This document shows, in pieces, positions 43,322-51,831 of a stretch of 51,831 bases of DNA. Position 1 is the stretch's first letter; each line of letters starts with the position of its first letter. The position numbers and the translations under genes were made by a program. Origin of the DNA: Patescibacteria group bacterium (GTDB taxonomy: Bacteria; Patescibacteriota; Minisyncoccia; Phycocordibacterales; 21-14-all-36-13). The stretch lies in NCBI GenBank assembly GCA_018899555.1, contig JAHIHZ010000011.1:1-51831 (forward strand). The letters are read 5' to 3'. A model generated the notes under the pieces. That model was not told the origin of the DNA, did no database searches, and worked only from the letters and a program-made list of their open reading frames with translations.

Positions 43322-43924
43322 GACACGGGACAAATACCCTGTTTCTGTGTCTCATTTGTCTCTTTGTCTCATTTACTAAAACACTACTCTAACCTACATA
43401 CATAAATTTGCAACACCAAAATATGTAAAATACCTTTATGACACTTGGAGTTGTTTCCCAGCGGTTTAACCGCTGTAAATGTTTAAATAAAAGAAAAAAC
43501 CCGCATATGGTGCGAGTTGAACTTCCCCCACATTTGTGGGGTGTGTTTAGTTATAAATATAAATTAAGTAAAAAGCAAAAGTATTTTTCACCTAGCAGAA
43601 TAAAAATCCATAAGAAATTTACCCTGTTAAATTCCGCCGAAGGCGGACCTGCATAGCAGGATTTAATAGGGTTGTAGTTTAATAGCTCCCAACAGGAAGT
43701 ATTACTTGATTAAATTAGTACTTCTCGGCTGAACGCATTACTGCGCTTACACCTAAAGCCTATCAACCTGATCATCTCTCAGGAATCTTAAATGATTTCT
43801 AATCTTGGAGTTGGTTTCCCGCTTAGATGCTTTCAGCGGTTATCCATTCCCGACATAGCTACCCTGCGATGCTCTTGGCAGAACAGCAGGTACACCAGAG
43901 GTCAGTTCACTTCGGTCCTCTCGT

Positions 43925-44752
43925 CACATATTTCTTAATCTTTTTAATTGATTTAGAATTTTACCCCCTATTTCTAGGAGTGTAGACTATATCTTCATCC
44001 GTCAGCTTCTGGCTGATTAGGATGTTGGCGTATTACAAGTATAAATCTGTCCCAATATATGTCGGAACTTTTCAATGTTATACAAGTCTGTTTGTTCAAA
44101 TTAAATTGAACAAAACAAGTCGTTACGGGGTCAAATCTAATAATTTTAGCAATTCATTTCTGTCTCTTTTTTTCTTAGTGACATAATTTTCTTTTTGTAT
44201 TTTAAGAATTAAATCTACAAGCATTATAAGTTCTTTCTTTTTCAAAAGATTTATTGATTTTTGTAAAATTTTACAAGAATTATATAATGCCTTAGCTTGT
44301 ATTTTTTTGAATTTTATATAAGGAATAAGATTTTTCAAAATTTTTTCTATTTTTTTAAATCCATTTATTCTCAATTCAGTCATCCCGTCTTTTCTTTTTG
44401 AAATATAACCTATATTTAATTCCTTTCTTATCCAATACAAAGGTTCATCATGGCGAGTGTCTTGATAAAAACACATCGTCGCCATAAAACGAATTCCTCT
44501 TTTGTTGTCGCTTCTTTTCTTTATCTGGAGCATTAAACTTCCATCTCCATCAAGAAAACCCGCGATATATGCTAAATTTATTTTTGATCGACTTCCCACG
44601 GTATTGTCTTAAAAATTATCTGGTCCTCAAGTAATTTTATCATAATTAACGGACCGCGTTAATTATTTTTCCACTGCCAGATATTTTATGAAGATTTCAC
44701 CGTTATTAGCCAAATTGTCATCTCATATTACTATGAGAAGTAGCAATTATTT
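43925..44752 (-). mobile_element. group I intron in the sarcin-ricin loop (between about U2656 and A2657) with LAGLIDADG gene
   Basis: Splicing restores CUAGU|ACGAGAGGACC. P1 is UAGU(A) with UGCUA. The intron ends in G. Core element GAAGATATAGTCTAC at about 43985-44000. Confidence 0.8.
44123..44599 (-). CDS. LAGLIDADG homing endonuclease (single motif, 158 aa)
   Basis: LAYIAGFLDGDGSLML. Its size is typical of homodimeric enzymes of this family. Confidence 0.85.
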   Translation of the reverse strand: MGSRSKINLAYIAGFLDGDGSLMLQIKKRSDNKRGIRFMATMCFYQDTRHDEPLYWIRKELNIGYISKRKDGMTELRINGFKKIEKILKNLIPYIKFKKIQAKALYNSCKILQKSINLLKKKELIMLVDLILKIQKENYVTKKKRDRNELLKLLDLTP

Positions 44753-44815
44753 ACTAGAAGCAAATCTCCTCAAAAATCGACGCCTGCAACAGATAGGAGA
44801 CCAACCTGTCTCACG

Positions 44816-45341
44816 CACTTTTGTTACTTCGTAACAAACGCAGATTCACGCAGATTATACGCGGATTTACGCAGAAGTTACGAGGACAAATCATTTCTGT
44901 TTATCTCTCCGTGTTACCACAGAGTGTCGGACTATACCTTCATCCAGCTGTAGTTTTTGTAAACTACGGCTGGAGACTGACATGTAGTCTCTACGGGGTC
45001 AAGCGCTTTGCTAAATTTAAAATGTAAATATCAAAGTTTAAAATTGTCGCGTCCGCCAAAGGCGGACAATTTAATTCACCACAAATTTTTCAAAGAAAAA
45101 TTTGTTCAACAATTTTGCATTTTGCATTTTGATTTTTCAATTTAGTGTTTCGCAATGCGAAACACGCAAACTTCCCTCGGTATTATCTTTTATTGGTCAA
45201 TAAAAAAGATTTCACCGATATGAGTCAGTTTAATATCAATCACGATTACTCGTGAAAGCCGCCGTGTTTTTCTCTTTTAGCTCTTTTAAACGTTTATGGA
45301 TTCAGAATACTTTGTAATCCGAAATAAATTTCAGATTACAA
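44816..45341 (-). mobile_element. group I intron at about L2593, ORF-less, with repeat modules in peripheral loops
   Basis: 5' exon ...UCAGACCGU|, 3' exon |CGUGAGACAGG, intron ends ...AAAAGUG. The internal guide CACG-GCGG can pair with both exons. Core at 44925-45000. Confidence 0.8.
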
Positions 45342-45350
45342 ACGGTCTGA

Positions 45351-46209
45351 CATTTCTTCCATTATTACTAAATGGTACTGACTATACCTTTTCCAAATTT
45401 TCCACCTTTGGAACTGACGTGTTAGCCCCGACTTTATTATGTCGGAACTCTGCCGATTTAATCGACAAGTCGATACGGGGATTATCAATCTTATATGCCA
45501 TTGCTTTTAGAATAAACGGAGCAACAATTGAGAGAAAATAATTATAATCTTTTCTTCCAATCGCGATTTTCCATTGATTTCTATCTTTTACAATTGTTGG
45601 AGATATTTGATACTTTTTCTTTAAAAAATCAACAATTATTTTTTGATCTTCTAAAGAAAATGAATGCGTGTTCAAAGTTATGTTTCCGTGATTATTTGAA
45701 CCATCATCCATATACCAAACTGCCAACATTCTGTCAGAGAAAATTGAAAGTATTTCTATTGGAAATTTTTTCACTTCATTTTTATAAAAAATTTCATGAA
45801 TGATTCCAAAGTTTTTTAGACTTTTTGTGTGAAAATACCAAGATACTTCGTGTAAATTTCTTTTTTTATTTATGCAAGAAATTTCTTTTGGTTCACAAGA
45901 TACCAAATTTTTTAGTATTTCGTACTTCCACCAGACATACTCTTTTTGTTTCTCTCCGTGATGAACTCGAAAGCGAGCGGTATAAGAAGTTCGTATTCCT
46001 TTCGATCGGCATTCAAGCCGAGCATCACCAAGCAATGACCCTATAATCACATCAAGTTGATGTGATGGAAATGTAGATTGTAATCTTCCCACGATATTAT
46101 CCATTGCATATATTTTAACATACACAATCGGACTTCACCGTTATGAGTCAGTTTACTATTCCTTTTTTATTTTATTCTCGATGAGAATTTGCTGGGCTCA
46201 TGAATCCTT
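45351..46209 (-). mobile_element. group I intron at about L2584 with double-motif LAGLIDADG gene
   Basis: P1 is GCUGGGU (exon) with GCCCAGC (intron). The intron ends ...GAAGAAAUG. Core at 45374-45480. Confidence 0.8.
45382..46125 (-). CDS. LAGLIDADG homing endonuclease (two motifs, 247 aa)
   Basis: [12 protein letters not shown] and [11 protein letters not shown]. Confidence 0.85.
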
Positions 46210-46293
46210 ACCCAGCTCACGTGACTTTTTAATTGGCGAACAGCCAAACCCTTGGGAGCTTCTACACCCCCAGGATAAGTCGAGCCGACATCG

Positions 46294-46644
46294 CAATATC
46301 ATTTTTCTCCTGTTACCAGGAGGATCGGACTATATCTTCTTCCTTCTACAACAATCAAATTGTAGTGAGGAGTTGGCGTATTAATATTTCGTTTGTGAAA
46401 TACTCTCTGCTTTCGCATCAGTCTCTACGGGGTCAATCCAGCACCTAATTTTTATTAATTAATTAATAAAAATTAGGTGCTGGACGACTTCCCACGGTAT
46501 TGTCCATAATAAAAATTATATCATGGAGTTCACCGTTATAAGCCAATATTTTAATCAAAACATATTCTCCTACAAATATGTTTTTTGATTCCAGGCTATA
46601 TGATTTCTCATATCGCACCCCGATTTAAATGTAAATTTACTTTA
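46294..46644 (-). mobile_element. group I intron at L2500, ORF-less (351 nt)
   Basis: Splicing restores GGCACCU|CGAUGUCGGCUC. P1 is GCACCU with GGGUGC. Core GAAGATATAGTCCGATCC and CCCCGTAGAGACTG at 46325-46430. Confidence 0.85.
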
Positions 46645-50458: not shown

Positions 50459-50780
50459 CGTTCTGGTATTCGGAGTTTGATTGGTCTAGTGAGATTGCTC
50501 CCTATCCAGACCATCCAGTGCTCTACCCCCAGAAGGTAATCTAAACGCTAGCCCTAAAGCTATTTCGGAGAGAACCAGCTATTACCAGGTTCGATTAGCT
50601 TTTCACTCCTACCCACAACTCATCCGATGGTTTTGCACGGCCAACCGGTTCGGGCCTCCCTCTATCTTTCGACAGAGTTCACCCTGGTCATAGGTAGCTC
50701 ACCTGGCTTCGGGTCTTACATATACTACACCTGCAATAAAGCAGAACGCGCTTTTGACACTCGGTTTCCCTTAGACTCCA

Positions 50781-50855
50781 CCCAGCCGTAGTTTTCGAAA
50801 ACTTATGAGGTAGTAATAAAAACAAATCAAAACTACTTCAAAAACTACGGCTGGG
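50781..50855 (-). other. expansion at 23S helix 25 (classical IVS site)
   Basis: CCCAGCCGTAGTTTT...AAAACTACGGCTGGG is a long hairpin in the position of helix 25. Confidence 0.6.
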
Positions 50856-50911
50856 CTTAGTCAAGCAATATATATAAACTCGTTGGCTCATTCTTCAATA
50901 GGCACACCGTC

Positions 50912-51171
50912 GCCGTTGCATCTCGCTAGGCAATATGCAACGGAAAATCACAAACCACAAGCACCAAAACACAAATTTATCCCGCCTGCCTGCAGTAGGC
51001 AGGTAGCTTCACGAAGTGAATGGTATGGGACAAAACATAATTACCAAAATTCAAAAATCAAAACTCAAAACTTTTTTATTTGAAATTTGGAAATTAGAAT
51101 TTAGAATTTATTTGTAATTTGGGATTTGTTTATTGGAATTTCCGTGCATCTCACACAGTGAGATGCAACGG
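50912..51171 (-). repeat. 260-nt composite expansion in 23S domain I/II (AC-rich arm, GC module, GU-rich arm)
   Basis: Contains AATCACAAACCACAAGCACCAAAACACAAA, the TTATCCCGCCTGCCTGCAGTAGGCAGG...GGTATGGGACAAA module (also intergenic at 32520-32577), and TTTGTAATTTGGGATTTGTTTATTGG. Confidence 0.75.
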
Positions 51172-51506
51172 CTCCGATTCCTTGTAGACATATGGTTTCA
51201 GGTCTATTTCACTCCCCTCTCCGGGGTTCTTTTCACCTTTCCCTCACGGTACTTGTTCACTATCGATCTCTAAGAGTATTTAGCCTTACCAGTTAGTTCT
51301 GGCAGATTCTCTCAAGCCATTCGTGTCTTGAGATACTCAGGAACATCAACAAAGAAGTATATGAAATTTCGTTTAAGGGGCTATCACTCTCTAGGGCCAA
51401 GCTTTCCAGCTTGTTCAACTATTTCACATATTTATAACTTCTCTTGCATAAATGCAACATTAATGTCCTACAACACCAGCCATACCTCACTAAGTTCGGT
51501 CTGTCT

Positions 51507-51668
51507 GGAAATCACAAATCACAAGCACCAAAACACAAACAAAACACAATTACCAAAATTCAAAAACCAAAACCTTTTTGTTTGAGATTTGAAAATTAGA
51601 ATTTAGAATTTATTTGTAATTTGGAATTTGTTTATTGGAATTTCCGTGCTGAACACAGTGAGGCACGG
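51507..51668 (-). repeat. 160-nt long imperfect hairpin expansion in 23S domain I, paralogous to 50912-51171
   Basis: An AAATCACAAATCACAAGCACCAAAACACAAAC... arm faces a ...TTTGTAATTTGGAATTTGTTTATTGGAATTT arm. It closes with CCGTGCTGAACACAGTGAGGCACGG. Confidence 0.75.
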
Positions 51669-51831
51669 CCGGTTTGGGCTTCTCCCGTTTCGCTCGCCGC
51701 TACTAAGGGAATCGCGAGCTTTGCTTTTTGCCCGCTGTAAAGAAAAGACAATATTTATTTCTTTATTTCTAAAGAAAAAATAATATTAATTCCTTTACCT
51801 ATTGCCTGTTCGCTTTTTAAAAATAAAAAGC

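Follow-up and report, generated by a model that had tools for sequence, protein, structure and literature searches.

What are the interruptions that break up a bacterial large-subunit (LSU) ribosomal RNA (rRNA) gene in its functional core, and how did so many of them come to lie in a single gene? The gene in question is the 23S rRNA gene in the analysed stretch of contig JAHIHZ010000011.1 (51,831 nt in its whole length, called the window below), where it occupies 43690..51831 on the minus strand and is cut at its 5' end by the window edge; as read from a longer ENA contig (L002), that end lies about 260 nt past the window end, giving a full gene of about 8.4 kb. We hold with high confidence that this is the 23S gene, probably the sole copy, of a member of the Candidate Phyla Radiation (CPR), that it carries seven group I introns and about eight hairpin insertions, and that the introns have been acquired and lost site by site. 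Positions in the rRNA are given in Escherichia coli numbering (Ec) and introns are named by their Ec site (L1917 and so on); loci of other genomes carry codes (L002, L004, L009, L107 and others) that are distinct from intron names such as L1917.

That the gene encodes 23S rRNA, as a preliminary description of this DNA had proposed, is borne out by the Rfam model LSU_rRNA_bacteria (945 + 272 bits) and by BLAST against E. coli rrlH, which yields colinear exon blocks on the minus strand, among them Ec1932-2262 (47618-47290), Ec2263-2500 (46884-46645), Ec2501-2584 (46293-46210) and Ec2657-2884 (43924-43714). Spliced in silico, the gene aligns globally to its E. coli counterpart with 73% identity over 2,827 columns. 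The seven introns that had been placed at L1917, L1931, L2262, L2500, L2584, L2593 and L2656 have junctions that match the E. coli alignment almost to the base, and each of the seven follows an exon T (U in the RNA) and ends in G, as had been stated. Together they amount to 4,181 nt. The claim that the introns, at about 4.2 kb, exceed the rRNA itself is right when an rRNA of E. coli size (2.9 kb) is meant, but the exonic part of the present gene, expansions included, is about 4.2 kb too; total extra sequence is about 5.4 kb (about 5,440 nt).

All seven introns interrupt functionally central regions, namely H69-H71 (1917, 1931), position 2262, the peptidyl-transferase ring (2500, 2584, 2593) and the sarcin-ricin loop (2656). 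L1917 (48097..48844, 748 nt, on the minus strand like all features of the gene) follows Ec U1917 in H69, where the upstream exon ends in ...GGCGATAACTAT (in longer form ...GGCGAUAACUAU), and it holds an open reading frame (ORF) in its P6 loop. A micro-exon of 14 nt (48083..48096, Ec1918-1931, AATCGTCCTAAGGT / AAUCGUCCUAAGGU, aligned to E. coli) separates it from L1931 (47619..48082, 464 nt), which follows Ec U1931. L2262 (46885..47289, 405 nt) lies after Ec U2262, exactly at the Ec2262/2263 junction, and L2500 (46294..46644, 351 nt) lies after Ec U2500 in the peptidyl-transferase ring. The P6 extension of the latter is a perfect 48-nt palindrome, CAGCACCUAAUUUUUAUUAAUUAAUUAAUAAAAAUUAGGUGCUG, at 46437-46484, which also draws spurious matches to microRNA models. 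L2584 (45351..46209, 859 nt), after Ec U2584, has an ORF that runs through P6-P8 of the core, and a second micro-exon of 9 nt (45342..45350, Ec2585-2593, TCAGACCGT / UCAGACCGU, identical to E. coli by eye at seven of nine positions) stands between it and its twin L2593 (44816..45341, 526 nt), after Ec U2593. The arrangement of a 9-nt micro-exon followed by another intron is kept in 10 related genomes (L004-L013). A 63-nt exon (Ec2594-2656) leads to L2656 (43925..44752, 828 nt), which follows Ec U2656 in the sarcin-ricin loop and has an ORF filling its P6 loop. Removal of the introns restores H69, the strands of the peptidyl-transferase ring and the sarcin-ricin loop (CUAGU|ACGAGAGGACC).

Concerning the identity of the insertions, the J8/7-P7' motif GAAGRTATAGTC, with at most one mismatch, occurs eight times in the window against 0.35 expected, a count that none of 100 shuffles reached. 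Every copy has the minus-strand orientation: each of the seven 23S introns has one close to its 3' end (in L1917 at 48150-48161), and the eighth is in the group I intron of the 16S gene. The J6/7-P7 motif AGAGACTAC, which had been proposed alongside it as a core signature, is not significant alone (7 found versus 4.3 expected in the window). P3, P4, P7, P8 and P9 can be written by hand in canonical order for all seven introns, and the helix sequences vary from intron to intron with complementarity kept, as in the P4 variants UGCGG/CCGCA, UGCUGG/UCAGCA, UGCUAG/CUAGCA, ACGGU/ACCGU and UCGGU/ACCGA and the P3 variants UCUAGC/GCUAGA, UUCAGC/GCUGAA, UUGGC/GCCAA and CUGAC/GUCAG. For L2584, where P7.1 and P7.2 could be added to this series by hand, covariation was analyzed in the 3' 130-136 nt of ten orthologous introns; gaps introduced by MAFFT in P7.1 broke the register, and RNAalifold was used, which recovered P7, P7.1, P7.2, P8 and P9 unguided, with compensatory changes at six pairs, in a stretch that also codes for the C-terminus of an endonuclease. 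A P1 pairing of 6-7 bp with a U.G wobble is found in L1917 (7 bp, AUAACUAU/GUAGUUA with U.G), L2262, L2500 and L2584 (7 bp, GCUGGGU/GCCCAGC), and the pairings quoted in the preliminary description, the one of L2584 as well as GCACCU/GGGUGC and AACUAU/GUAGUU, are all present.

Three of the introns encode predicted endonucleases whose LAGLIDADG domains score above the Pfam curated cut-off. L2584 carries a LAGLIDADG_2 ORF of 247 aa (45382..46125; PF03161, E = 1e-40, 139.8 bits), orthologs of which, at 78-93% identity, lie in 23S genes of other Patescibacteria. The LAGLIDADG_1 ORF of L2656 (44123..44599; PF00961, E = 7e-12, 46.5 bits) encodes a single-domain protein of 158 aa, and that of L1917 (48337..48696; PF00961, E = 9e-21, 75.1 bits) is 119 aa long in the window. 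The remaining four, L1931, L2262, L2500 and L2593, contain no ORF. As judged from these domain matches, the three proteins can be expected to have endonuclease activity.

Several observations weigh against so uniform a description. The curated gathering threshold of the Rfam model Intron_gpI (RF00028), 50 bits, is reached by only two of the seven introns, L2262 (70.9 bits, E = 2e-17) and L1931 (55.2 bits, E = 1e-12). L2593 falls just under it (48.2 bits, E = 1e-10) and is followed by L2500 (39.9 bits, E = 4e-8) and L2656 (30.7 bits, E = 2e-5, on the 3' half); L1917 is marginal (19.9 bits, E = 0.04-0.14), and L2584 gives no match, even when the scan is narrowed to its region. The covariance model thus backs the group I assignment of the preliminary description for five introns (E <= 2e-5) and leaves the other two to the remaining evidence. 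Likewise, a search for P1 in L1931, L2593 and L2656 gave pairings of only about 4-5 bp, none of them convincing. Finally, the endonuclease ORF of L1917 is frameshifted in the window version: a gene of 181 aa is called in L002 and L003 (48152-48697), and the shortening to 119 aa is due to a homopolymer at 48379 that is one T shorter in the window (T10) than in L002 (T11), L003 showing one gap that is not localised; the T10 run may reflect a genuine inactivating variant or else an error in sequencing the homopolymer. It should be noted that the three weakest scorers with Rfam, L1917, L2584 and L2656, all have large ORFs that split or overlap the catalytic core. On the evidence as a whole, we conclude that all seven 23S insertions are group I introns.

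Removal of each intron from the precursor would follow the usual two-step transesterification initiated by guanosine: the exon U, in most cases in a U.G wobble, would be presented by P1, the guanosine site of P7 would receive the terminal G, and ligation of the exons would restore the universally conserved rRNA sequence. To judge from the junctions and folds, all seven are most likely spliced and their exons ligated. The LAGLIDADG homing endonuclease genes of L1917, L2584 and L2656 could copy their introns into intron-less alleles of the same site, and the four ORF-less introns would be immobile descendants of these. On this view each site would have its own history of intron gain and loss in the clade, through homing or vertical inheritance, with no recent copying from site to site in the genome.

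The comparison with 23S genes of relatives, which the preliminary description had suggested as a way of dating intron gain, speaks directly to this point. Scanning the L2584 endonuclease against species-representative genomes gave 18 loci (best 93% identical), all of them in metagenome-assembled genomes (MAGs) of Patescibacteria, Paceibacterota or Parcubacteria (Zambryskibacteria, Nomurabacteria and others), several being titled only generically or as 'uncultured Saccharibacteria'. The 23S genes of these relatives are all interrupted, at the same Ec positions and in differing combinations, and for each of the seven sites there is at least one relative without an insertion there. L004, the closest of them, with exons about 96% identical, lacks L2500 precisely at the predicted junction, which confirms the boundary and indicates a recent gain or loss. 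For each intron, the best match is the same-site intron of another genome: in nine genomes the counterparts of L2584 at its site are 80-94% identical to it across some 820-880 aligned nt, L2262, L2593 and L2656 are 84-85% identical to those of L004 over most or all of their length, and L2500 matches that of L016 at 81% in partial stretches. Paralogous introns within the genome, on the other hand, share 62-82% identity, and only over core stretches of at most 230 nt, one instance being the 3' core of L1917, which is 77% identical to that of L2262. Best matches at the same site are the signature of site-specific homing or vertical descent and not of recent copying between sites.

This bears on the proposal of the preliminary description that the introns form two sequence subfamilies, A (L2500, L2584, L2593, L2656) and B (L1917, L1931, L2262 and the 16S group I intron), which spread inside the genome. 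The four motifs on which the subfamilies were based are real (they were quoted on the plus strand and are thus the reverse complement of the RNA), they divide the eight introns four to four, and they mark two classes of P4-P6 domain. Read as RNA, they correspond to two strands of the core, P4/J4-5 and J5-4/P4'/P6, and A and B are structural classes. By reading of the sequences, P7.1/P7.2 are present in L2500, L2584 and L2656, which are accordingly IA-like, and not in L2593 or the type-B introns. L2593 crosses the division: it has motifs A1 and A2, but its 3' half groups with L1931 and L2262, being 71-73% identical to them over about 115-120 nt and the P9 extension, so that it appears from its sequence to be a mosaic of a type-A P4-P6 domain and a type-B-like 3' half. 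That the introns multiplied within this genome, A and B each descending from one founder that colonised further rRNA sites by a route such as reverse splicing, is in our judgement unlikely. The motifs shared by the introns of a class, which in L2500 and L2656 agree at as many as 17 of 17 nt, are expected from constraint in any introns of the same class, and neither the low identity of paralogs, confined to cores, nor the high identity of same-site orthologs over most or all of their length fits such a history; moreover, the same sites are occupied across CPR phyla, according to Tsurumaki et al. 2024 (J Bacteriol, PMC11270868). In its favour are, besides the shared motifs, the 3' module common to L1931, L2262 and L2593 and the match of the 3' ends of L1931 and L2593 to the L2262-site intron of L004 at 78-80%. 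These modules indicate some inter-site exchange at some time, and an older exchange of modules between sites is likely.

Two further explanations of the gene have to be weighed. The copy could be decaying or mis-assembled, with the real rRNA coming from another, uninterrupted gene, and the window does end inside the 23S gene. However, the 23S structure is the same in three assemblies, the window, L002 (ENA ERZ27247124 k141_461844, 89.8 kb) and L003 (GCA_018899895.1 JAHIHC010000005.1), the last two of which differ from the window at 1-2 positions and encode the flanking SNase-family protein identically; this agreement makes an assembly artefact very unlikely. The universally conserved stretches of H69, the peptidyl-transferase region and the sarcin-ricin loop are also intact in the exons, the relatives have the same architecture, and CPR genomes usually have one rRNA copy (PMC11270868). 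We therefore regard a dead or misassembled copy as very improbable.

An organellar gene, from a green-algal chloroplast or a mitochondrion, would be the classical home of a multi-intron LSU gene, and the low GC content of the window (about 0.33), the LAGLIDADG introns and the unlinked 16S and 23S genes would all suit it, as would the intron sites, which we take to be classical chloroplast LSU sites. In the chloroplast LSU genes of Chlamydomonas, reportedly described by Turmel and colleagues in 1991 and 1993, several LAGLIDADG group I introns are said to lie in domains IV-VI together with internal spacers in variable regions, and at the same conserved sites as here (1917-1931, 2500, 2593). Those genes are organellar and multi-copy, whereas the present one is on a bacterial chromosome with probably a single rRNA gene. 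The neighbouring genes are bacterial by Pfam (NAD-dependent LigA, Fic, an Eco57I/TaqI-type methylase, SNase and a TraG/TrwB-like ATPase) and the related loci are all Patescibacteria MAGs. Gene content and relatives lead us to reject an organellar origin, to which we assign next to no probability. The host is an uncultured Patescibacteria bacterium (CPR, of Parcubacteria/Paceibacterota type), as follows from the exclusively patescibacterial relatives of the L2584 endonuclease and from a 16S rRNA that, as in about half of Parcubacteria (PMC9297842), lacks the anti-Shine-Dalgarno (anti-SD) sequence.

Once the gene is accepted as the chromosomal 23S gene of a CPR bacterium with site-by-site intron turnover, it takes its place in a documented pattern, contrary to the rarity that the preliminary description implied. 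According to Tsurumaki et al. 2024, 82% of 348 surveyed CPR 23S genes have insertions of at least 100 bp, with as many as 16 insertions in a gene and up to 5,750 bp of them in a 23S gene, and 45% of the insertions can be recognised as group I introns, which lie preferentially toward the 3' part of 23S. LAGLIDADG_1 ORFs are concentrated there at 1917, 1931, 1952, 2593, 2604 and 2657, LAGLIDADG_1 and LAGLIDADG_2 ORFs are mostly single-domain, and introns with and without ORFs occur at the same sites; the same text reports short non-intron insertions at the known intervening-sequence (IVS) sites of helices 25 and 45, in 16S, near position 1400, a group II-like intron that contains a LAGLIDADG ORF, and usually one rRNA copy per genome. 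It credits Brown et al. 2015 (Nature 523:208) with the first description and with the absence of the insertions from transcripts. Sites 1917, 1931, 2593 and 2656/2657 match those of the present gene, as do the helix 25 and helix 45 insertions (E3 and E6 below), and we see no difference in kind. With seven introns, about eight insertions and about 5.4 kb of extra sequence, the gene is near the upper end, and the window, which reproduces every feature listed here, is an extreme example of a known phenomenon, in which multi-intron 23S genes at exactly these sites are typical. The Zambryskibacteria gene L009 is more heavily loaded still, with 5,760 nt of extra sequence.

The intron-laden gene as such thus leaves current understanding unchanged. 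It is a well-resolved extreme case of the CPR trait, with its seven introns, micro-exons of 9 and 14 nt and ORFs overlapping the catalytic core, and could serve as a test case for the order of splicing around a tiny shared exon, for the specificity of homing endonucleases and for how a cell whose rRNA gene is probably single copes with at least nine processing steps. Outside the CPR, the single-copy 23S gene of Coxiella burnetii, a bacterium said to have a reduced genome and a host-dependent lifestyle, reportedly holds two group I introns near H69-H71 and a helix-45 IVS, in work attributed to Raghavan and colleagues (refs 27-30 and 34 of PMC11270868). It has two introns against seven here, and its insertions are not known to belong to a genome-wide repeat family.

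The last point leads to the non-intron extra sequence of the 23S gene, about 1.3 kb at about eight sites, in agreement with the at least eight expansions of the preliminary description. Each expansion is a long self-contained hairpin, with folding z-scores, taken from mononucleotide shuffles, of -2.4 to -8.0. From the 5' end, E1 (51718..51831, about Ec216-228, z = -7.2) measures about 165-175 nt in all and runs past the window end; E2 (51422..51652, about Ec279-293) adds 227 nt; E3 (50806..51170, about Ec540-619, z = -6.5) adds 313 nt in the helix 25 region, a classical IVS site; E4 (50312..50462, about Ec925-941, z = -8.0) adds 135 nt and is a CGCAGAU/AUCUGCG hairpin element; and E5 (50187..50235, about Ec1015) adds 49 nt. 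E6 (49926..50032, about Ec1163-1186) is a 107-nt hairpin at helix 45, the other classical IVS site, where it adds 105 nt, and E7 (49154..49373, about Ec1704-1770 in helix 63, 170 nt added, z = -7.5) and E8 (48915..49053, about Ec1854-1858 in helix 68, 135 nt added), an AT-rich hairpin, complete the series. These hairpins, at the tips of variable helices, may stay in the rRNA as expansion segments or be removed by RNase III.

Bacterial IVS in helices 25 and 45 of 23S rRNA are excised by RNase III without religation, which leaves a fragmented 23S rRNA. E3 and E6 resemble them in location and form, being long near-perfect stem-loops in the same helices; a 23S_rRNA_IVP ORF is absent. Unlike bacterial IVS, similar insertions occur here at six further sites of the gene and in 16S as well.

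The expansions are also related to one another and to DNA elsewhere in the window. A 118-nt repeat occurs in both E2 and E3 (89% identity), intergenic DNA at 32488-32606 matches part of E3 at 83%, and the inner hairpin of E4 recurs intergenically at 27899-27960 (85%). A block of E7 (49161-49282, 122-123 nt) is 97.6% identical, in the same orientation with respect to the rRNA, to 9918-10040 in an insertion of the 16S gene (Ec66-243 region), and terminal and inner modules are common to E4, E7 and that 16S insertion. The most over-represented 7-mer of the window is ATCTGCG/CGCAGAT, with 38 occurrences versus 3.1 expected. It often stands in arrays of four units spaced 10, 13-14 and 10 bp, and these are found in intergenic spacers, rRNA insertions and intron 3' tails (9175-9213, 10007-10046, 11241-11281, 17171-17201, 19408-19447, 23102-23141 and 49250-49278, with further sites at 44839-44856 and 46902-46909). 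The array at 17169-17210 lies in frame in ligA (15863-17923, minus strand) and is 98% identical to the intergenic copy at 11239-11280. It encodes 17 residues in a surface loop that does not exist in E. coli LigA and differs in a sister species (L083), whose ortholog lacks the array.

Beyond the window, at least 119 metagenome contigs contain the four-unit array. Three of these (L083, L107 and L124) belong to the sister species, with rRNA exons 95-98% identical to those here. At helix 45 the sister species holds, in L107:1744-1895, a CGCAGAU element of about 150 nt that is 95% identical to window 9920-10066 and unrelated to E6, so that insertions appear to turn over at a fixed rRNA site. The density of the heptamer is 0.73 per kb here and 0.81 per kb in L004, and at most 0.43 per kb, with little or no enrichment, in more distant Paceibacterota.

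It is possible, and we put it forward tentatively, that the expansions are insertions of a dispersed hairpin repeat built on CGCAGAU arrays, and not slowly evolved expansion segments; as part of the same tentative reading, copies of the repeat would turn over among helices of the small- and large-subunit rRNA, peripheral intron loops, spacers between genes and even the surface loop of LigA. The distribution of copies suggests mobility of the repeat, which should be taken as a lead rather than as a conclusion. A role as DNA uptake sequence, regulator site or RNA-processing signal is speculation. Among the metagenome contigs, arrays standing just after stop codons show no clear orientation bias (26 versus 21 of 155), which leaves a terminator or 3'-untranslated region (3'-UTR) role unsupported.

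A comparable distribution is reportedly that of the Rickettsia palindromic elements (RPE), said to have been described by Ogata and colleagues in 2000. The CGCAGAU repeat shares with RPE its occurrence between genes, inside stable-RNA genes and, with the reading frame kept, inside a protein gene (the LigA loop), but the two have no sequence relationship, the present repeat is a 7-mer array with 10-14 bp spacing and hairpin modules, and its mobility is suggested by distribution. Nothing relevant on dispersed or palindromic repeats in the rRNA of CPR bacteria came up in a literature search, and the accessible part of PMC11270868 makes no mention of short insertions as dispersed repeats. If the tentative reading is true, a structured mini-element that moves or recombines would be what drives the expansion of CPR rRNA, and this would offer a bacterial model for the origin of expansion segments. 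The repeat-built expansions are hence the part of this gene that could matter more, as a testable route by which rRNA helices grow through insertion and turnover of short structured repeats.

The 16S gene, also on the minus strand, is interrupted in a similar manner. Its group I intron (8236-8794, near Ec793/794) scores 83.4 bits with Rfam, and the provisional boundaries, which leave an exon A instead of U before it, are probably off by a base or two. A further insertion of about 955 nt, within 6505-7580, follows about Ec1395 (window position about 7580; near Ec ~1396) and holds an Rfam match to group II D1-D4 (7165-7254, 54.9 bits) and a LAGLIDADG_1 ORF (6697-7287). The 16S sequence resumes at about 6622 (ACCGCCCGUCA...) and ends near 6505, which makes the 16S end given by Rfam at 7537 a mis-extension. 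From this layout the insertion is a putative group II-like intron with approximate boundaries. Ribosome biogenesis would then need at least nine splicing events and not the eight counted in the preliminary description, which had not included it. Two hairpin insertions complete the extra sequence of 16S, one of about 450 nt at 9442-10068 (Ec66-243) and one of about 94 nt at 9097-9244 (Ec439-494, z = -12.5). In the 3' tail (6495-6545, GGAUUAUUU... / ...GGAUUAUUUUAAAUU) there is no CCUCC anti-SD, in agreement with its loss in about half of Parcubacteria noted above, and an SD-like motif stands upstream of only one of 31 ORFs.

As for the surroundings, the 16S and 23S genes are on the same strand some 33.5-35 kb apart; 16S is followed only by a tRNA-Ile gene, the rRNA genes being unlinked, and no 5S rRNA gene was detected downstream of 23S (window 43330-43690). 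Near the 3' end of the 23S gene, two duplications of about 0.3-0.6 kb and 90-95% identity lie about 4.8-4.95 kb apart (37621-38228 versus 42404-43020, and 36204-36517 versus 41158-41441). They cover the start of the SNase-family gene and its upstream DNA, in a region that also has Fic, Eco57I/TaqI-type methylase, AAA_14 and Bro-N genes and that looks like a variable defence or mobile island.

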